NCBI GenBank assembly: GCA_048887225.1
Contig: JBHLJY010000003.1
Span: 96,001 to 160,000, forward strand
DNA length: 64,000 nucleotides
Source of the DNA: Candidatus Hodarchaeota archaeon
Lineage (GTDB): Archaea > Asgardarchaeota > Lokiarchaeia > Sigyniarchaeales > SOKP01
Direction: 5' to 3'
Under the pieces are notes generated by a model, which was given only the letters and a program-made list of their open reading frames with translations, was not told the origin of the DNA and ran no database searches. Positions 3,598-64,000 of the stretch are shown here, piece by piece. Numbering within the stretch: the first letter of the stretch is position 1; each line of letters begins with the position of its first letter. A program made the position numbers and the translations under genes.

Positions 3598-4515
3598 ATG
3601 TCTAAAAAAATCATTGTTGGTTCGATCTGTAATCGAGATCTCGAAGTTTTTAACGAGATCAAGAGATTTTCTAAGATTCATTATAGAATAAAGTTTGTTA
3701 ATCTCATAAAAAACGATTCTTCTTTTTCTATCAAATATTTCAAAAAAAAATTGAAAAAATACAATATAGATTTCTTAATTGTTAAATTATATTCAGAGGA
3801 ATCAAATCATAAAGTATATGACGCAATTAAATCATATGCATCTAATATCCCCCGATTGAATAGTTTAAAATCTGTTCAAACATGCGAGAGCCGAAAGGAA
3901 ACATTTAAATTAGTAGAGGAAAAATGCAAAAAACTAAAGATTCCTAAATCTTTTTATTCAATAAACGCTGCGTTTGAAGCAGTATCGAATGGAACGCCTT
4001 TAATTATAAAATTAGATACACATAATATAAGAAATTTATCTAAATATGATCGAATTCTTGGTGTCGCGAAATCTAATGATGATTTCGTTAAGTTAATTAG
4101 AAAATATGATGTAGAGAATAACACTTTATTTTTCCAAGAATATTTAGGTAAACATGATGATATTTATAAAGTGTATGTAATTGATCGTTATGTACAAACA
4201 ATCACATCTCAAAATCTTTTATTACAACATAAGTTTTCCCCTTTAGAATTAGTACACCTTAGAGCACCGATAGAAAAAGAATTTAAAAGACAAATTTTAA
4301 GATTAGGGCGAAAATTTGGTATGACAATCTTCGGTGTTGATTATGTCTTAAAAGATGACATTCCCTATATAGTAGATATTAATGATTTTCCTAGTTTTAG
4401 ATATATCCCCGAGGCTATAAGCATGATATCTGATTATATATACAAGTTCTGTGTTGCGAGACAAACTCTTACTAAGATTCCAATGAGATTAAAAGTAAAA
4501 ACTTATACTATGTAA
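3598..4515 (+). CDS. ATP-grasp protein, ITPK1-like inositol phosphate kinase
   Basis: FFQEYLG..IYKVYVI; IFGVDYV...IVDINDFPSF matches the ITPK1 K-V-Y-V and D-I-N-x-F-P pattern. Confidence 0.75.
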   Translation: MSKKIIVGSICNRDLEVFNEIKRFSKIHYRIKFVNLIKNDSSFSIKYFKKKLKKYNIDFLIVKLYSEESNHKVYDAIKSYASNIPRLNSLKSVQTCESRKETFKLVEEKCKKLKIPKSFYSINAAFEAVSNGTPLIIKLDTHNIRNLSKYDRILGVAKSNDDFVKLIRKYDVENNTLFFQEYLGKHDDIYKVYVIDRYVQTITSQNLLLQHKFSPLELVHLRAPIEKEFKRQILRLGRKFGMTIFGVDYVLKDDIPYIVDINDFPSFRYIPEAISMISDYIYKFCVARQTLTKIPMRLKVKTYTM

Positions 4516-4542
4516 GAATAGCAATACAATTAAATTCTTATA

Positions 4543-5634
4543 TTATCGCGATCTTTTTCCTTGGATAAATCTTACAAGGCGTCGTTTCGCCCTAAAATCT
4601 TGGAGCTGTTTTGGAGGGTGTTTCATAAAAAAAGAACTTGCTGAATGTAATACGCCTCCAATCTGTCGATCTTTAGCTATTTTTGATATTCGAATGCAAT
4701 CTGCAATAATACCTGCTGAATTATTCCCGTCTTCAACAAACATGGTGATATCTACTCTGACAGGAGCGCCTCCAAAAATACGTCCTTCTAATCTCATATA
4801 TGCTTCTTTTTGATTTTTTAAGAATGGAATATAATCAACAGCAGAAATTTGACATTCAACAGTATCTTTATTTTGTAACTTAGCAACGACTGCCTCAGTT
4901 TTGGATTGGCGTTTTCCTTCTTCATAAATTAGCTCCCCGTTCGGTTTAGGTGTTAGAAGGTTCAAGAAATCGCTACATCCGCCCCAATCAAGCTGTATTG
5001 TTCTATCCAATATCGCTCCACGCATTGGAAAAAGATTTGCTAAAGCTCTATGAATAATTGTCGCACCAACCTGAGATTTCACATCGTCTCCAATTAAAGA
5101 AAGTCTTAATTCTTCTGCTTTTTGGACTATTTCTGGATCTTTCGCTACATTTGATGGTATTCCACACACAATACAGGCTCCTGCATCAAGAGCAGCCATT
5201 GCATAAAATTTCACAGCTCTATGGGCCCCAGTTGGTAGAAGAATTACAGCGACATCAACACTTCGTTCTCTTATTTCTCTAGCAATATCAGCTTCTTTTT
5301 GGTTATTATCAACAGGCACAATATTCTTTATGTTGCTATCCAAACCATCCATTATAGGACCTTTAATGACTGGAGCATTTAGAAAATCTGGACGATATAG
5401 TTCCATATTACAATTTGGTTCAGCAAATATGGCTTCACTAAGATCTTTTCCAACTTTGTTTGCGTTGACTTCTATGCCCAATACAAAACTTATATCATTG
5501 ATGCTATATTGTATTATTTCTGGTAGAATTCCTATAATTTTATCTGGATTTCTTTTATAGTTTTCGATTCCTTGGACAAGAGCAGATGCAACATCTCCAA
5601 TCCCTATCAGACAAACATTAATTTTATTTGTCAT
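4543..5634 (-). CDS. ino1: myo-inositol-1-phosphate synthase
   Basis: GIGDVASALVQG, GDDVKSQVGATIIHR, GGCSDFLNL, SKTEAV, NSAG, FFMKHPP. Confidence 0.9.
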   Translation of the reverse strand: MTNKINVCLIGIGDVASALVQGIENYKRNPDKIIGILPEIIQYSINDISFVLGIEVNANKVGKDLSEAIFAEPNCNMELYRPDFLNAPVIKGPIMDGLDSNIKNIVPVDNNQKEADIAREIRERSVDVAVILLPTGAHRAVKFYAMAALDAGACIVCGIPSNVAKDPEIVQKAEELRLSLIGDDVKSQVGATIIHRALANLFPMRGAILDRTIQLDWGGCSDFLNLLTPKPNGELIYEEGKRQSKTEAVVAKLQNKDTVECQISAVDYIPFLKNQKEAYMRLEGRIFGGAPVRVDITMFVEDGNNSAGIIADCIRISKIAKDRQIGGVLHSASSFFMKHPPKQLQDFRAKRRLVRFIQGKRSR

Positions 5635-55711: not shown

Positions 55712-56491
55712 TTAATCCCTATCAAATCCTTTCTTTCCTTTTGTTATAGCTTTTTTAGCAACTTTTTTAGCAATATTAGCAGGATCCGCTAATTTTTGTA
55801 TCCCCTGTACAGCTGCGTCACCAGCTTGACCAATTACATCCCCAGTAATAGTACCACCTCCCATAAGCTCCGCAGCTACAACTCCCCCTGCTGGTGTTAA
55901 TGCTGCTGATACTATCATTGTAACCGCTGCAACAGCCACGACTTTAGCAATTTTCTGAGAGGTTGGATGATCTGCTCCTTTCTTGTCCTTTACATCCTCT
56001 CCAACAGCTTCTAGTGCTCTCTTCAATCCTTTTATTAAAGCATTTAAAGCGTCTTCTTTTTTCTCTTCCTTTCCTTTATGAAAAACCCCTTCCTTATAAG
56101 CGTATTCTAGAAACTTAGTTAAAGATTTAAACTTCTTGACTTTTTTATATCCATTCCAATCATCTTCTTTAAAGTTTTTAAGCGCATTTTTAATAGGTCT
56201 ACCTTTATCAACTTGAAACATATATAGATAAGGTTCCTTTTTATCATCTAAATATACGGCTTCATAAATCCAATCTCCAGGTTCTTTGTCTTCTCCAATT
56301 AATATTCTAAAATTTATTTTGTTTGTTTTACCAACTAATCCTTTTGAGAATTTAACCATCGCTACTTCATCTCTTCGAGCCCCTTTAATCTTTTCCGCAA
56401 TCTCATCGGACCTCTTCTCGTCGAAAAAATCATTAAGGGCATCCCAGCCTTCTTCAAATACCTTTTTTGCTATCTTAACTTCTTTTTCCAA
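55712..56491 (-). CDS. hypothetical protein with Ala/Gly-rich hydrophobic C-terminal segment
   Basis: Long ORF; AGTGA SD before TTG; VVAVAAVTMIVSAALTPAGGVVAA. Confidence 0.7.
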   Translation of the reverse strand: MEKEVKIAKKVFEEGWDALNDFFDEKRSDEIAEKIKGARRDEVAMVKFSKGLVGKTNKINFRILIGEDKEPGDWIYEAVYLDDKKEPYLYMFQVDKGRPIKNALKNFKEDDWNGYKKVKKFKSLTKFLEYAYKEGVFHKGKEEKKEDALNALIKGLKRALEAVGEDVKDKKGADHPTSQKIAKVVAVAAVTMIVSAALTPAGGVVAAELMGGGTITGDVIGQAGDAAVQGIQKLADPANIAKKVAKKAITKGKKGFDRD

Positions 56492-56663: not shown

Positions 56664-57026
56664 TTGATTCAGATGAGTGAAAAGATATCTAATATTTTAG
56701 AATCCCTTAAAGCGATAAAAGGTGTACACGGAGCTGCCTTAATCGAAAAGTTTGGGTTAATTAAAGGTAGCGCTTTGCCTGGTTGGGTGGACCCTGAAGC
56801 AGTGGCGGCAATGGTAACACTTATTTTGAAAGCCTCTCAAAGAGCAACTAAAGAATTAGAACAGGGAGTTTTTAAAAATGCGACAATTGAGAGTGAAAAG
56901 GGTAAAATTCTCTTTTCAGAAGTTAAGGGTAATATAATTACAATTATTACAACTACAGATTGCAAATTAGGAATCGTAAATTTAAAGTTATCAGCAGCGA
57001 GTTCCGCTTTAGAAAGTATGTTATAA
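56664..57026 (+). CDS. Roadblock/LC7 domain protein
   Basis: GVHGAALIEKFGL..S, AVAAM, ELEQG, IESEKGKI, KLGIV; ATG at 56673 likely. Confidence 0.85.
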   Translation: MIQMSEKISNILESLKAIKGVHGAALIEKFGLIKGSALPGWVDPEAVAAMVTLILKASQRATKELEQGVFKNATIESEKGKILFSEVKGNIITIITTTDCKLGIVNLKLSAASSALESML

Positions 57027-57053: not shown

Positions 57054-58514
57054 TTAAACAAATTCTTTTAATAATTTATCCAAAATATCATTTGCTAGTT
57101 CGGGATCTGCTTGTCCTTTTGTTTCCTTCATTATCTTTCCTACTAATGCCATTTTCGCTTTAGGATTTTTGCGATAATCTTCTATTATTTTTGGATTCCC
57201 TTCTATAACGTTCCTACATAAATCTTCTAAAAATTTCTCATCAGCTATTCTTACTTTCCCGCTTTTTTTGATGATAGTTGATATAGGAATTCCTTTCATC
57301 ATCTCATCAATATAAGTTTTTGCAATCTTTGTTGTAATTTTCCCTACTTTAATTAAATTAATTAAATCTACAACTTGCTTCGGTTTTAAGCTGGTTTCTT
57401 TGATCTGTTTATTATTCTCATTCAGCCAACGGGCGACATCATTCATTACCCAATTACAATATAATTTATAATCTTCTTGCTCAAAATTTTTATCAATCTG
57501 AACCCCCTCTTCATAGAAATCTGCAATATTCTTATCGAGAACTAATAAATCAGCATCAAATTCAGAAAGATGATATGCTTCTTGAAGTCTTTTTGATCTA
57601 GCCATTGGCATTTCGGGCATCTGTTTTTTGACGTTTTCAATGAACTCATCATCTAATTCAATTTTCGGTAAGTCTTGTTCTGGATAATATCGATAATCTT
57701 CTTCAAATTCCTTTTTTCTCATTTCGACGGTGATACGTCTTTTTTCATCCCAACCACGTGTCTCTTGAATGAGCGCTTTTCCTCTTTCTATCATTTGTCG
57801 ATGTCTTCTGATTTCCCATTTCAGTGCTCTTTCTACTTCCTTAAAACTATTAATATTTTTTACCTCAACACGGGCGCTCCCTTTAATGGAGATATTTGCA
57901 TCCACTCTGCATGTTCCCTCTATATTTAAATCCGAAATCCCGGTATATTGAATGATACTTTTTAATTGGTTGAGATATTCTCTCGCTTCTTCTGGTGACC
58001 TTATGACGGGGTCGGTAACAATTTCTATTAGAGCGATTCCAGAACGGTTATAATCGACTAAGGTATAAGGCGAAATAGTTATACTCCCTTTATGTACAAG
58101 TCGAGCAGGATCCTCTTCTAGATGAATTCGATTCAGTTTGATATTCTTTTTGATGCCATTAATTTTTATAGGAACAATCCCACCATCCGCAAACGCATTT
58201 CCTCCTAATTTATTATAGAGTGTTAATTGAAAGTTCCTTGCCATATCGGGGTAATAATATTGCTTTCTAAAGAAGAAAATAGATTTATTTATTTTGCATT
58301 CTAAAGCTAACGCCAAACGAGTTGCGAACTCAAGAGCTCTTTTATTTATTAAGGGGAGTATACCTGGGAAGCCAAGACATCCGGGACAAACATACGTATT
58401 TGGTTCTTTTCCGTAATAATCGCTATTACAACCGCAGAAAAATTTAGTTTTTAAATTTGATAATTGAATGTGGGTTTCCAAACCAATAATTACATCCTCA
58501 TAATTTTCAGTCAT
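57054..58514 (-). CDS. gatB: Asp/Glu-tRNA amidotransferase subunit B, divergent copy
   Basis: IGLETH, RKQYYYPD, HLEED, DYNRSG, RVDANIS, EVKN, DYRYYPE, YqeY-like tail. Confidence 0.92.
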   Translation of the reverse strand: MTENYEDVIIGLETHIQLSNLKTKFFCGCNSDYYGKEPNTYVCPGCLGFPGILPLINKRALEFATRLALALECKINKSIFFFRKQYYYPDMARNFQLTLYNKLGGNAFADGGIVPIKINGIKKNIKLNRIHLEEDPARLVHKGSITISPYTLVDYNRSGIALIEIVTDPVIRSPEEAREYLNQLKSIIQYTGISDLNIEGTCRVDANISIKGSARVEVKNINSFKEVERALKWEIRRHRQMIERGKALIQETRGWDEKRRITVEMRKKEFEEDYRYYPEQDLPKIELDDEFIENVKKQMPEMPMARSKRLQEAYHLSEFDADLLVLDKNIADFYEEGVQIDKNFEQEDYKLYCNWVMNDVARWLNENNKQIKETSLKPKQVVDLINLIKVGKITTKIAKTYIDEMMKGIPISTIIKKSGKVRIADEKFLEDLCRNVIEGNPKIIEDYRKNPKAKMALVGKIMKETKGQADPELANDILDKLLKEFV

Positions 58515-58524
58515 ACAAAAATCC

Positions 58525-60000
58525 TCAATTTTTAATTGCAGGCATTTTTCTAAATATATTTAATTCTTGTTCGAGTAAATAACCAATATTTAGTATTGAT
58601 TTTTCATCCAAATAATTCCCTATTATCTGTATACCGATGGGGAGCTGTTTCTTATCAAACCCGCAGGGTATAGATAATGCTGGCAAACCTGAAAGGTTCG
58701 CAGGACAAGTTAAGCTGTTCATATCATACATTTTTAAAGGTTGATCTATTAATTCGTTAATTTTAAATGCTGTTTTTGGCATTGTAGGAGAGATCAACGC
58801 ATTACATTGTTTCAGAGCATTTTGAATATCATTTTTAATCAATGTCCTAACTTTTTGGGCTTTAATATAAAAAGGCTTGTAATATTTTTTGGTCAATAAA
58901 TAAGTCCCTAACAATGATCTTCTTTTAGCTTCTATACCAAGTTTTTCTCCTCGTGTTTTGCTATATACCTCAAAAACATCTTTTGTTTGATCAAAAAACA
59001 ACATCTTACCGTATCTTAAACCATCAAATTTTGCGATATTTGATGCTTCTTCACTAAGCGCAATTAAAAAATATGCGGGTAAAGCAAATTGGAAATTAGG
59101 AAAGGAGATCTCCAGAAATTCTATCCCCAAATTTTCTAGCTTCTTAATAGCTTTAAATACGACTTCTTTGGTTGAAGGATCAATGTCACCATTAAAAAAT
59201 TCTTTAGGAATTCCAACTATTTTGTTTTCAATACTCTCCTCCAAAAAATCGAAGTAGTTTTCAATTTTTTCATGTAGGGTAGTTGGATCTAATGAGTCGC
59301 GTCCTGCTATGATTTGAAGTAATAACGCACAATCTTTAACACATTTAGTAATTGGACCTATTTGTTCAAGAGAATTTCCATAAGAAGCTAATCCGAATTT
59401 TGATACTAAACCCGTTGTAGGTTTTAATCCAACAACACCACAAAACGAAGCAGTACATCGTATGCTCCCGCCAATATCACTACCGAGAGCAAAAATTGTT
59501 TGTTTCGACGCAACTGCGGCTCCCGAACCTCCACTTGCTCCTCCTGGAACATAATCTAAATTCCATGGATTATAAGTCGCAAAATAGCAACTTGTTTCAG
59601 TGGAACATCCCATTCCGAATTCATCCATGTTAGTACTTCCAATAAATATAGCTGAATCTTTTTCAACTAATTTCTCGATTACAGTTGCGTTAAATGGGGG
59701 AATATAACCTTCTAAAATTTTTGAAGCACAAGTAGTAGGATAGTTTTTAACACAAATACCATCATCGACAACAAGGGGCAATCCAGATAATCTTCCTTTA
59801 AGTTTTTTTTGCTTTAATTTCTTGTCCAATTCTTTTGCTCTAATCAATGCATTTTCCTTGGTTAAATACACGAAGGAATGTAAATAAGGTTCAGTTTCAT
59901 CAATGATTTTAAAAGTATCCTCAATGATTTCTTGAATTGTTAATTCTTTATTGTTTATTTTTTCCAATAATTCATACCCCATAAGTTCCTGCATTTTCAT
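58525..60000 (-). CDS. gatA: amidotransferase subunit A, divergent copy with degenerate catalytic triad
   Basis: Amidase fold; VVDDG replaces IKD, GGAS replaces GGSS, GGSIR retained. Confidence 0.88.
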   Translation of the reverse strand: MKMQELMGYELLEKINNKELTIQEIIEDTFKIIDETEPYLHSFVYLTKENALIRAKELDKKLKQKKLKGRLSGLPLVVDDGICVKNYPTTCASKILEGYIPPFNATVIEKLVEKDSAIFIGSTNMDEFGMGCSTETSCYFATYNPWNLDYVPGGASGGSGAAVASKQTIFALGSDIGGSIRCTASFCGVVGLKPTTGLVSKFGLASYGNSLEQIGPITKCVKDCALLLQIIAGRDSLDPTTLHEKIENYFDFLEESIENKIVGIPKEFFNGDIDPSTKEVVFKAIKKLENLGIEFLEISFPNFQFALPAYFLIALSEEASNIAKFDGLRYGKMLFFDQTKDVFEVYSKTRGEKLGIEAKRRSLLGTYLLTKKYYKPFYIKAQKVRTLIKNDIQNALKQCNALISPTMPKTAFKINELIDQPLKMYDMNSLTCPANLSGLPALSIPCGFDKKQLPIGIQIIGNYLDEKSILNIGYLLEQELNIFRKMPAIKN

Positions 60001-60183
60001 TAGTATCTAACCGAAATTCATATGATATATATTCTAGAACATTTGTAAAATTAATTTAACTGGTATAATTATGAATTTCTAAAAAATCTCACTAAAATTA
60101 AATCATAACCTATGGGAGTTTTGAAATGTTATAGTCTACAAAAAAGATATAAAATAAGAATAATGGTAAGAGATACTAACTTT

Positions 60184-61638
60184 TTACTTTTTAATAATCC
60201 TTAATATAATTTCCCTTGTTTTTTCTGGATCCAATTGACCTCTGGTTTTTTGCATACATTTTCCTATTAATGCTTCCAACGCTTTAGGATTTTTTTTTAA
60301 ATCCTCAACGATACTTTTATTTTCTTTTATGACATCTCTTACAATTGAAATAATTTTTTCCTCATCGGCGATTCTTTTTTTTCCAGTTTTTTTCATTATT
60401 TCGGAGATGGAGGTTCCTTTCATCATTTCATTGATATATGATTTTGCGATTTTTCCAGTAATCTTTCCTTGCTTGATGAAATTAATCAAATCTATCACTT
60501 GTTTAGGTTTTAACTTAGTTTCTCTTATATGTTTTTTGTTAAAATTTAGCCAGCGCGAGATATCTCCTTTTAACCAATTACAGAATTGTTTATAGTCGTC
60601 TAATTGAAAAGACTTTTGAGATTTTACACCTTCCTCATAGAAGTCGGCAATATCTTTATCTATAACTAGAATTTCTGCATCAAATTCAGACAATCCATAC
60701 TCTTTTTGGAAACGTATAGATCTTGCCTTTGGCATCTCTGGTAATTTATCTTTGATTTCTTTTATGAATTTCTTGTCAATTTCAAAGGGAGGTAGATCTT
60801 GTTCTGGAAAATATCGATAATCCTTTTCAAATTCTTTTGTTCTGAGACCAATAGTTATCCTTCTTTTATCATCCCAATGACGGGTTTCCTGAATTAATTC
60901 TTTACCTCTTTTTAATAAATTCTTTTGTCGCTGAATTTCCCATTTTAACGCTCGCTCAACTTCTTTAAAACTATTTATGTTCTTAACTTCAGATCGTGCA
61001 TGCCCTTTAATTGAAATATTCGCGTCCACACGACAAGACCCCTCTAAATCTAAGTCAGATATGCCTGTATATTGCACAATTGATTTTAATTGTCTTAAAT
61101 ATTCACGAGCCTCCTCAGGAGATTTCATTACAGGGTCAGATACAATTTCTATGAGAGTAACGCCTGAACGATTATAATCAACTAAAGTAAATGGAGATGT
61201 GGCAATCGATCCTTTATGGACTAAGCGCGCAGGATCTTCCTCAAGATGTATCCTATTAAGTTTTAAATCCTTTTTCTTGCCGTCTAATTTTATTGTGATT
61301 TTTCCTCCATCAGCAAAAGCGCTTCCCCCAGCTTTATGAAATTGGGATATTTGGTAGTTTTTCGACATGTCTGGATAGAAGTAATTCTTTCTAAAGAACC
61401 AAAATGATTCATTTATATCACAACCTAATGCTAAAGCCAATCTCGTCGCAAATTCAATAGCCCTCTTATTCACTACAGGTAATGAGCCCGGTAAACCAAG
61501 ACAAATTGGGCAAGTATGAGTATTTGGTCTTGCTCCTCGATAATCGCTATTGCAACTACAAAATAATTTTGTTTTTAAATTTGTGATTTGAATATGGGTT
61601 TCTAATCCTATAATTATGTCCTCATATTTTTTACTCAA
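60184..61638 (-). CDS. gatB: Asp/Glu-tRNA amidotransferase subunit B
   Basis: RKNYFYPD..YQISQ, HLEED, DYNRSG, DYRYFPE. Confidence 0.95.
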   Translation of the reverse strand: MSKKYEDIIIGLETHIQITNLKTKLFCSCNSDYRGARPNTHTCPICLGLPGSLPVVNKRAIEFATRLALALGCDINESFWFFRKNYFYPDMSKNYQISQFHKAGGSAFADGGKITIKLDGKKKDLKLNRIHLEEDPARLVHKGSIATSPFTLVDYNRSGVTLIEIVSDPVMKSPEEAREYLRQLKSIVQYTGISDLDLEGSCRVDANISIKGHARSEVKNINSFKEVERALKWEIQRQKNLLKRGKELIQETRHWDDKRRITIGLRTKEFEKDYRYFPEQDLPPFEIDKKFIKEIKDKLPEMPKARSIRFQKEYGLSEFDAEILVIDKDIADFYEEGVKSQKSFQLDDYKQFCNWLKGDISRWLNFNKKHIRETKLKPKQVIDLINFIKQGKITGKIAKSYINEMMKGTSISEIMKKTGKKRIADEEKIISIVRDVIKENKSIVEDLKKNPKALEALIGKCMQKTRGQLDPEKTREIILRIIKK

Positions 61639-61648
61639 TTCTTTTGCC

Positions 61649-63121
61649 TCATTTTGTAATAGGGGCTAATTTTCTAAAAATATTTAATTTTTGCTCAAGT
61701 AAATAAGCAATATTAAGAATCGTTTTTTCATCAAAATAATTTCCGATAATTTGAAAACCGATAGGTAATCCCTTACCATCAAATCCGCATGGAACTGATA
61801 ATGCTGGTAATCCTGCAAGATTAACGGGACAAGTTAAAATATCCATCATATACATCTGCAATGGGTCGTCTACTAACTCGCCAATTTTAAAGGCGGTTGT
61901 TGGCATTGTTGGGCAGACGATTGCGTCGCACTTCTTAAACGCGTTTTGAAAATCATTCCTAATCAAAGTCCGTACTTTTAGCGCTTTAATATAAAACATG
62001 TCGTAATAACCAGCTGATAAAGCGTACGTCCCTAATATTATTCTTCTTCTTACTTCAGGACCAAATTTTTCTCCACGAGTTTTACTAAATATTTCAAACA
62101 CATCTCCATTTGGAACTTCGGACATTTTTCCATGTCTCAATCCATCATACCTCTCTAAATTAGAACTTGCTTCACTCATTGCTATTAAGTAGTATGTAGG
62201 AATAGTATATTCAAGATGTGGTAATGAAATTTCAATTGTCTTAGCTCCAATACTCTTTAATATATCAATTGATTTATTTACAGAATTTTTAATGGAAGAA
62301 TTTACTCCCTCTCTAAAGAATTCCTTAGGAACGCCAAGAGTTTTATTTTCTATTGGTTTGTTTAATTCTTCAGTATATTTCTCAACTTTAATCTCAACAG
62401 AGGTTGAATCTAATGGATCCTTTCCAGCTATAATTTCCAATAATAATGCACAATCGTAAACACATCTGGTTATTGGCCCAATTTGATCTAAAGAATTTGC
62501 GTAAGAAACTAACCCATATCTCGAAACTCTGCCATATGTTGGTTTTAATCCTACAACTCCGCAATATGATGCTGGACATCTTATACTACCACCAGTGTCA
62601 CTACCTAAAGAAAAAATAACTTGTCCTGAGGCCACACACGATCCTGAACCTCCACTTGAACCTCCAGGTACGTATTCTAGATTCCATGGATTATATGTAG
62701 GACCATAACAGCTATTTTCCGTAGAGGAACCCATAGCAAACTCGTCCATATTTGTACGACCGATGGAGATTGCCCCTCTTTGTTTAATTAATCGTTCGAT
62801 AACTGTCGCATTATAAGGGGGATGATAACCTTCTAAAATTTTTGAACAACATGTTGTTGGATTATCTTTTATACATATGAGGTCCTTTATTGCAATTGGC
62901 ACTCCATACAGTTTCCCGATAGTTTTTCCATTTTTTAATTCTTTATCCTTTTGTTTTGCTTCGCTTATTGCTTTCTCTTTAGATACATGAACAAAAGAAT
63001 GTAAAAGATTATCTGTTTTTTCAATTCTATCAAGATAAAACCGAATAATTTCCTGAATTTGAATTTCTCTATTTTTAACTTTTTCAATTAACTCGTATCC
63101 CATGTATTCAAGGATATTCAT
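61649..63121 (-). CDS. gatA: Asp/Glu-tRNA amidotransferase subunit A
   Basis: PIAIKD, GGSSGGS, GSDTGGSIR, RRIILG, MYMMD intact. Confidence 0.95.
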   Translation of the reverse strand: MNILEYMGYELIEKVKNREIQIQEIIRFYLDRIEKTDNLLHSFVHVSKEKAISEAKQKDKELKNGKTIGKLYGVPIAIKDLICIKDNPTTCCSKILEGYHPPYNATVIERLIKQRGAISIGRTNMDEFAMGSSTENSCYGPTYNPWNLEYVPGGSSGGSGSCVASGQVIFSLGSDTGGSIRCPASYCGVVGLKPTYGRVSRYGLVSYANSLDQIGPITRCVYDCALLLEIIAGKDPLDSTSVEIKVEKYTEELNKPIENKTLGVPKEFFREGVNSSIKNSVNKSIDILKSIGAKTIEISLPHLEYTIPTYYLIAMSEASSNLERYDGLRHGKMSEVPNGDVFEIFSKTRGEKFGPEVRRRIILGTYALSAGYYDMFYIKALKVRTLIRNDFQNAFKKCDAIVCPTMPTTAFKIGELVDDPLQMYMMDILTCPVNLAGLPALSVPCGFDGKGLPIGFQIIGNYFDEKTILNIAYLLEQKLNIFRKLAPITK

Positions 63122-63263
63122 TTTAAAATAACCAAATAAATCAATAAATACTGTAGAATGATCTCAAGATTAGCTTATCTTTATAAATCATCTATTTCTA
63201 AAAAATTCATTTATTTATTTTTAAAATAAAAAAAAGAACAAATATATAATGGGCAGATATAAC

Positions 63264-63352: not shown

Positions 63353-64000
63353 TTACTTAGAGAATTTTTTTTTATTCTTTTTCAAAAGATATTTAGAAAA
63401 AATGTTCATATATAAGCATTCTTCGGGAGGCATCTCTGTTGTGAATTTTGGATTTTCAGTAAATTCCACATTAGCTCCTCTGATTATAACTATAGGTGTT
63501 TGTTGATTTGCTTCGTTCAATAGAAATTGAGCCGCACTTGTGAGATCATCTGCTATCGCTCGCATAGTAATTTCTAAAGGTCTGCCATATAAATCTGGAT
63601 GACCTCTTAAATCCTCAACTGGTTCGAATCCTGCCGTTGCTATAGCAATGCCTATTGTTCCCTTTCTTAAAGGTTGGACTCTCGAATCTGCAAAAATAAC
63701 TCCAAGATCTTTTATGTTAAATTCCTCTCTTAATCTTTTCCAAAAATCCCAAACCTCTTTTTTAATATTTTTAGGTAGGAGAACTACATTATTAGGTCCA
63801 GCGTTAGATTGGTCAATTCCAGCATTCGCAATTAAGAAATCGTTAACTTTTGCTAATATTACGTGTCCTTGAGGTAGTCCTCCTAAAATCATAGATGCTT
63901 CTTTCAATATTAATTCCACATATCTCTCATCCATATTGCATATTTTAGCCATTTTTTTTGCTTTTTCTGATACGGTTTTTATACTAGATAAATTTATCAC
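63353..64000 (-). CDS. cofE: coenzyme F420:L-glutamate ligase (CofE-like), 5' end outside window
   Basis: ANAGIDQSN, ADS..PLRKG..GIAI, DLRG..DLYGRPL..T..AIADDL..AA. Confidence 0.85.
   Translation of the reverse strand: MINLSSIKTVSEKAKKMAKICNMDERYVELILKEASMILGGLPQGHVILAKVNDFLIANAGIDQSNAGPNNVVLLPKNIKKEVWDFWKRLREEFNIKDLGVIFADSRVQPLRKGTIGIAIATAGFEPVEDLRGHPDLYGRPLEITMRAIADDLTSAAQFLLNEANQQTPIVIIRGANVEFTENPKFTTEMPPEECLYMNIFSKYLLKKNKKKFSK

Follow-up and report, generated by a model that had tools for sequence, protein, structure and literature searches.

To our knowledge, all characterised GatCAB enzymes couple their own glutaminase to the amidation of tRNA. A second tRNA-dependent amidotransferase, GatDE, is built on a paralogue of GatB, with an asparaginase-like GatD as its partner. 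Outside translation, AsnA and AsnB form a pair in which one enzyme uses ammonia only and the other glutamine. Among NAD synthetases, a single-domain, ammonia-only NadE exists beside a glutamine-using form, and some genomes, such as that of T. maritima, hold both (PMC3376133). In archaea GatCAB works as an aspartyl-tRNA(Asn) amidotransferase, and its tunnel, about 30 Å long, carries ammonia (PMC2330236). GatB-type enzymes accept NH4Cl in vitro, and in yeast GatFAB damage to the glutaminase side leads to more NH4Cl-driven transamidation (PMC4027206). We report here on a locus of a Candidatus Hodarchaeota archaeon of the Lokiarchaeia, in which a canonical gatA-gatB pair is followed by a second pair, gatA'-gatB', whose GatA' looks glutaminase-dead. 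It lies in a window of 64,000 nucleotides (assembly GCA_048887225.1, contig JBHLJY010000003.1, positions 96,001 to 160,000), to which coordinates refer unless another contig is named.

An earlier note on this DNA, made from its letters alone, had proposed the two successive pairs, and four minus-strand open reading frames were indeed found in the order gatA-gatB-gatA'-gatB'. The canonical glutaminase and kinase/amidotransferase subunits are encoded by gatA (61649..63121, 490 aa) and gatB (60184..61638, 484 aa); gatA' (58525..60000, 491 aa), a predicted full-length pseudo-glutaminase, and gatB' (57054..58514, 486 aa) follow. All four exceed the curated NCBIfam cut-offs, with 635 bits for GatA (cut-off 481) and 536.5 for GatA' (481.1) against TIGR00132, and 521 bits for GatB (315) and 491.5 for GatB' (314.8) against TIGR00133. 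Databases label the second pair simply gatA and gatB, and the nearest named relatives are Promethearchaeota/Lokiarchaeia (Promethearchaeia). Protein identity is 61% between GatA and GatA' and 67% between GatB and GatB'. The two operons are colinear at the DNA level, and since their identity is only 68% over 2,959 nt, the duplication of the operon is old. This divergence, together with the same gene order in independent assemblies, rules out an assembly artefact or a recent duplication. Compared with GatCAB (TIGR00132/TIGR00133; 3IP4, 2F2A, 3H0L, 3AL0, 3KFU, 4WJ3), the second pair has the same folds and gene order, GatB' keeps the metal, ATP and Zn residues, and the genome has an aspartyl-tRNA synthetase (AspRS) of the non-discriminating type and gatC. 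Unlike GatCAB, it has a GatA' without the catalytic Lys and other glutamine-site residues and a GatB' in which Q99 is Leu and the Zn-loop and interface region has been remodelled, and it is additional to an intact pair.

In canonical GatA, K79, S155, T176, S179, R360 and D427 are intact. In GatA numbering, GatA' carries K79D in place of the catalytic Lys, S155A in place of the cis-Ser, T176I at the oxyanion-hole Thr and D427N at the glutamine-binding Asp, positions that align with K79, S154, T175 and D425 of the S. aureus enzyme (for the roles of these residues, see PMC2330236, PMC4027206, PMC2811023). Only the nucleophile S179 is left of the Ser-cisSer-Lys triad that defines a GatA, and R360 and Y310 (glutamine-binding R358 and Y309 in S. 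aureus) remain at the glutamine site. All 10 distinct GatA' sequences have Asp or Glu at position 79, and all 53 canonical GatA covering the site have Lys there. D427 has become Asn, and T176 Ile or Met, in four of the six GatA' lineages, and position 155, Ala here, is Ala, Ser or Gly across lineages. S179, the GGS motif, D175 and R181 are present in all GatA'. Over the six lineages, GatA' retained 83 of the 131 positions invariant in canonical Lokiarchaeia copies, against 111 of 128 for GatB' (Fisher p = 1.4×10−5). As the earlier note had supposed, GatA' looks catalytically dead, and from the residues it looks glutaminase-dead in every lineage; judged by its triad, it is classed as a GatA-derived pseudo-enzyme. 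Two more amidase-signature genes, distant from GatA (32-33% identical), are present in the genome (C7:27885-29228 and C6:140316-141662).

Alignment confirmed that GatB' keeps GLETH, HLEED, EIV, RVDAN and EVKN, together with its four Zn cysteines and its tail, as had been claimed. All 13 GatB' retain E13, H15, E133, E164, E217, K84, Y86, Q96, N207, K219, N220, R266, K268 and the Zn cysteines; the metal ligands (H15, E133, E164) and the ATP-site residues E13, E217, N220 and S223 are all in place, and every residue invariant among 135 diverse GatB is kept as well. Among 65 positions conserved to at least 90%, only Q99 is replaced in all GatB' yet kept in the canonical copies of the family: it is Leu in 13 of 13 GatB' and Gln in 132 of the 135 diverse GatB (Q94 in S. 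aureus). K93 (S. aureus K88), a Lys in 130 of the 135, is Arg in 10 of the 13, including this one. The claim of an altered active-site loop (RKQYYYPD..FQLTL) stood in part. I97L and Q99L are fixed and specific, and K93R is frequent; N85Q and F95 are not diagnostic, and the invariant K84, Y86, Y88, D90 and Q96 are kept. Neither "RKQ" nor "FQ" serves as a marker, since N85Q is shared by 7 of 13 GatB' with four canonical GatB, and F95 is the usual residue in the family. By its residues GatB' is classed as a variant GatB, and it looks like an active kinase. A change at Q99 or K93 was also tried as a sign of a dead GatA elsewhere and rejected, bacterial GatB with Q99H or K93Q adjoining an intact GatA in a limited convergence test. 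One bacterial gatB with the motif YQITSAT (L085:6001-7512) has no gatA or gatC among its neighbour genes.

By model and fold search, GatB' comprises a cradle, a helical domain and a YqeY tail. In the cradle, GatB' are 82% identical among themselves and about 72% to GatB, and conservation between lineages is 82%, against 79% for canonical GatB. In the helical and tail domains GatB' are no closer to one another than to GatB and form no clade; nor is there any GatB'-specific signature or directional change in the tRNA-binding domains. Because GatB'-specific divergence is confined to the cradle, we concluded that a remodelling of this catalytic and interface domain was followed by its conservation. 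Fixed changes of the clade include R34Y, I45G, L49F, I97L, Q99L and A103L, and 6 of the 11 fixed differences fall in residues 24-56 and 83-103 (p = 4×10−4, the region having been chosen post hoc). The model of GatB' reached a predicted local distance difference test score (pLDDT) of 94 with a deeper alignment (67 with the first one) and a template modelling (TM) score of 0.7-0.8 to solved GatB chains. A complex of GatA' with the GatB' cradle, modelled with these two chains only, scored 0.85 against 0.02 for the best control, with at least 87% contact agreement between runs and a partner pLDDT of at least 85; of 80 solved complexes 58 reach the mark used, and of 110 mismatched pairs 2 do. Because GatAB structures are already solved and the model may be recalling them, the score is evidence of likeness more than of binding. 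Four of the six changes fixed in GatA' lie at the modelled interface (p = 7×10−4), which suggests that GatA' may have become fitted to its own GatB'. Of the 11 fixed GatB' changes, two lie there (p = 0.14) and six in the adjoining Zn-loop and 83-103 region; Q99 is absent from the list of interface residues.

The second pair is not restricted to this assembly, a restriction that the earlier note had said would tell against its proposal. All or part of it was found on 14 other contigs, making seven lineages with this genome, and beyond its own sequences the searches turned up seven 90%-clusters for GatB' and four for GatA'. The order gatB-gatA'-gatB' is seen on contigs L040-L046, L048, L049, L061 and L062, gatA'-gatB' on L060 and L063, and on L047, a short contig, only gatA'. 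Both GatB' and GatA' make up a single clade of their own nested in the family of this genome, with Shimodaira-Hasegawa-like approximate likelihood ratio test (SH-aLRT) supports of 100 and 99 from quick LG+G4 trees, the source of all supports; the second pair has one origin. Its distribution is patchy: 1 of 161 genomes of the class carries it, and there is no second full gatB in the 160 others. A DNA pattern for the GatB' motif had no match in the species-genome collection, and two matches in the family to a GatA' pattern were unrelated genes. In the sister species, where the locus is fully assembled, gatB runs straight into the roadblock gene, so the absence of the pair there is real. On the canonical tree, carrier and non-carrier lineages are intermixed, and the history therefore involved repeated loss or exchange between lineages. 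Between L043 and L062, the canonical genes gatA and gatB show a synonymous divergence (dS) of 0.24-0.34, compared to 0.01-0.05 for gatA' and gatB', which hints at a recent exchange of the second pair, unless the contigs are chimeric. In L043 an enoyl-CoA hydratase gene (3927-4712) sits between canonical gatA and gatB, where L057 has a 2.3-kb gap.

No stop or frameshift was found in any copy of GatA' or GatB', over lineages whose pairwise dS approaches or exceeds 1. Ratios of nonsynonymous to synonymous divergence (dN/dS) were computed with our own Nei-Gojobori script, deep pairs being near saturation. Against L062 they were 0.12 for gatA' and 0.15 for gatB', compared to 0.09 and 0.10 for the canonical genes; gatB' gave 0.11 against L063, L042 against L045 gave 0.20-0.23, and close pairs with few changes gave up to 0.39. 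In informative pairs the range was 0.10-0.23, and the second pair is under purifying selection (dN/dS about 0.1-0.2). The lack of stops and a dN/dS well below 1 rule out a pseudogene.

The assembly, 98% complete, holds one gatC (contig C15), intact gatE and gatD (C5), a non-discriminating AspRS (aspS_nondisc, C7) and a glutamyl-tRNA synthetase, as well as glutamine synthetase and AsnB-type genes. The absence of gatC from the locus, already remarked in the note, was confirmed and is ordinary, since gatC lies elsewhere in the genome; no second gatC was found there. No asnS was found in this genome or in nine others of the genus (0 of 10), nor upstream of the pair in any of the five carrier loci having upstream DNA. 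The pair appears to occur in organisms relying on GatCAB for Asn-tRNA. In the family as a whole, 83 of 134 genomes have asnS, often directly before gatA-gatB (e.g. L054:1780, L056:11697, L059:3582), which runs against the statement that archaeal GatCAB occurs only without asparaginyl-tRNA synthetase, AsnRS (PMC2330236). With a non-discriminating AspRS, gatC, intact gatDE and no asnS, Asp-tRNA(Asn) is left as the open substrate. No tRNA-Asn was found in the assembly, and no unusual tRNA was seen in a tRNA inventory that is incomplete. The second pair is not a replacement for a missing GatDE, gatD and gatE both being intact. It would resemble GatDE, which likewise uses a paralogue of GatB in a second tRNA-dependent amidotransferase; unlike GatE, GatB' nests in the GatB of the family and lacks the GatE insertion, and GatE models score 154 and 133 bits on it against cut-offs of 456 and 320.

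Starting from the residue losses and retentions, conservation, selection and gene inventory established above, we infer glutaminase loss, kinase activity, a tRNA substrate, a nitrogen donor, use of GatC and a physiological purpose. GatA'-GatB', with a shared GatC, would be a glutamine-independent, ammonia-using Asp-tRNA(Asn) amidotransferase working beside the normal GatCAB, with GatA' as a scaffold; we give this proposal about an even chance. The non-discriminating AspRS would make Asp-tRNA(Asn), GatB' would phosphorylate its side-chain carboxylate with ATP and Mg, and free NH3/NH4+ would attack the activated carboxylate to yield Asn-tRNA(Asn). GatA' would no longer split glutamine and would serve as the structural partner of GatB', the remodelled interface and tunnel region uncoupling GatB' from the glutaminase, and the single GatC would probably be shared by the second complex. 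The likeness to NadE and AsnA is that of an ammonia-using counterpart to a glutamine amidotransferase; in those enzymes the glutaminase module is absent, whereas here it would be retained as a full-length dead subunit, and the folds are unrelated.

Several points weigh against this proposal. The normal GatCAB already uses ammonium in vitro, so that a second enzyme is not strictly needed, and the pair is dispensable, as it is missing from close relatives that likewise have no asnS. The tail of GatB' is somewhat relaxed, with 28% identical columns compared to 42% in canonical GatB, and the Lys-rich tail motif (tRNA variable loop), KKSGKVR here and found in most GatB', is lost in one lineage (L060). 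Q99L could impair or redirect the enzyme. In the H. pylori enzyme, T149V in GatA and K89R in GatB reportedly lowered kinase activity; we take these tunnel residues to correspond to T176 and K93 here. Finally, a search of this 98% complete genome for an Amt ammonium transporter found none, a result that could count for or against the proposal. Of the relatives that do not have the second pair, two (G002 and G008) have an ammonium transporter next to glutamine synthetase, and G004 has none.

Four other explanations were weighed. GatA' might be a regulator or decoy that tunes the canonical GatCAB by sensing a metabolite or by competing for GatC, GatB or Asp-tRNA(Asn), with GatB' slow or idle. The single gatC fits this, as does a pocket that retains R360, Y310, D175, S179 and a conserved acidic pair at 79-80. 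There is also a precedent in Tse8, an amidase-fold effector of P. aeruginosa that replaces GatA on GatB/GatC through a GatA-like fold without amidase activity, as proposed for GatA' (bioRxiv 10.1101/733030); Tse8, however, is a distant foreign inhibitor with its triad kept, and GatA', at 61% identity to GatA, is a paralogue that comes with a GatB' of its own. A decoy would need neither all the kinase residues nor a cradle conserved like the canonical one, and the interface changes suggest a fit of GatA' to GatB'; we consider this explanation unlikely.

Rather unlikely, too, is a redundant or decaying copy, in which GatB' would be an extra ordinary GatB pairing with canonical GatA, and GatA' would be on its way out. 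The absence of the pair from 160 other genomes of the class, sister species with a fully assembled locus among them, speaks for it, and so do the relaxed selection on GatA' and the values of up to 0.39, on few changes, in close pairs. The open frames kept across lineages at dS near or above 1 speak against it, as do the constant co-occurrence of GatA' and GatB' and the concentration of fixed GatA' changes at the modelled interface.

A new chemistry, in which GatB' would activate an aminoacyl-tRNA or some other carboxylate and couple it with an amine that is not ammonia, so that a non-standard aminoacyl-tRNA or a compound with no part in translation is formed, would account for the burst of cradle change followed by strong conservation, for Q99L fixed at a nearly invariant site, for the clustering of 6 of the 11 fixed differences and for the somewhat relaxed tail. 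The amine bound in the GatA' pocket that the earlier note had envisaged is weakened, as it would have to cross the tunnel of about 30 Å, which carries ammonia and not larger amines (PMC2330236), and whose entry Thr has become Ile or Met in most GatA'. Moreover, no invariant active-site residue is altered, no partner gene accompanies the pair, whose flanks are those of the native locus, the tail shows no directional change, and the incomplete tRNA inventory has no unusual tRNA; we hold this quite unlikely. The idea that GatA' is still a hydrolase, using S179 and the acidic 79-80 in place of the Lys to release ammonia from another amide donor, fits S179, the GGS motif, D175 and R181 in all GatA' and an always acidic position 79, but is improbable given a freely variable cis-Ser (Ala, Ser or Gly), the loss of the oxyanion-hole Thr in most lineages, the fact that S179 is no surprise when 63% of invariants are kept in GatA' anyway, and that we know of no amidase-signature enzyme with an acid replacing the catalytic Lys.

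On the minus strand upstream of gatA', a promoter-like element, GTGAGATTTTTTAGAAAT then TTATA (60062..60092), ends 74 nt before the start codon, and the same element, ATTTTTTAGAAAT then TTTATAAA (63179..63210, minus strand), stands 72 nt before gatA. Of the 14 copies of ATTTTTTAGAAAT in the genome, two are these, and other lineages keep a similar element upstream of gatA as well as gatA'. It may be a putative promoter that was duplicated along with the operon. No NrpR-type operator was found upstream of gatA', and a sigma-70 promoter scan, a model unsuited to archaea, gave chance-level matches. At the other end of the locus, a roadblock/LC7 gene (56664-57026) converges on gatB', and it and a 259-aa protein without NCBIfam match (55712-56491) are kept there in carriers and non-carriers. 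Beyond gatA come, back to back, the genes of a CofE-like gamma-glutamyl ligase and of a pterin-binding (DHPS-like) protein, and after them gyrase genes (63353-64000 of the window; contig C3 from 160197). This arrangement is also kept on contigs L041 and L042, and the gyrB of L042 (3391-6648) contains an intein.

A literature search, mostly outside subscription papers, gave no account of a GatCAB in Asgard archaea that is duplicated or glutaminase-dead. Because an intact and an apparently dead pair adjoin at 61-67% identity, the locus provides a built-in control, and the about 6 changes fixed in GatA' and 11 in GatB' could be swapped to probe the coupling of the active sites and the route of ammonia to GatB. 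If the proposed ammonia-using amidotransferase is real, glutamine, and the ATP for remaking it, would be spared when ammonium is plentiful, in a lineage without AsnRS. A GatAB that occurs in nature under selection with its glutaminase dead would amount to a version of the enzyme dedicated to ammonia, tying translation to ammonium supply.

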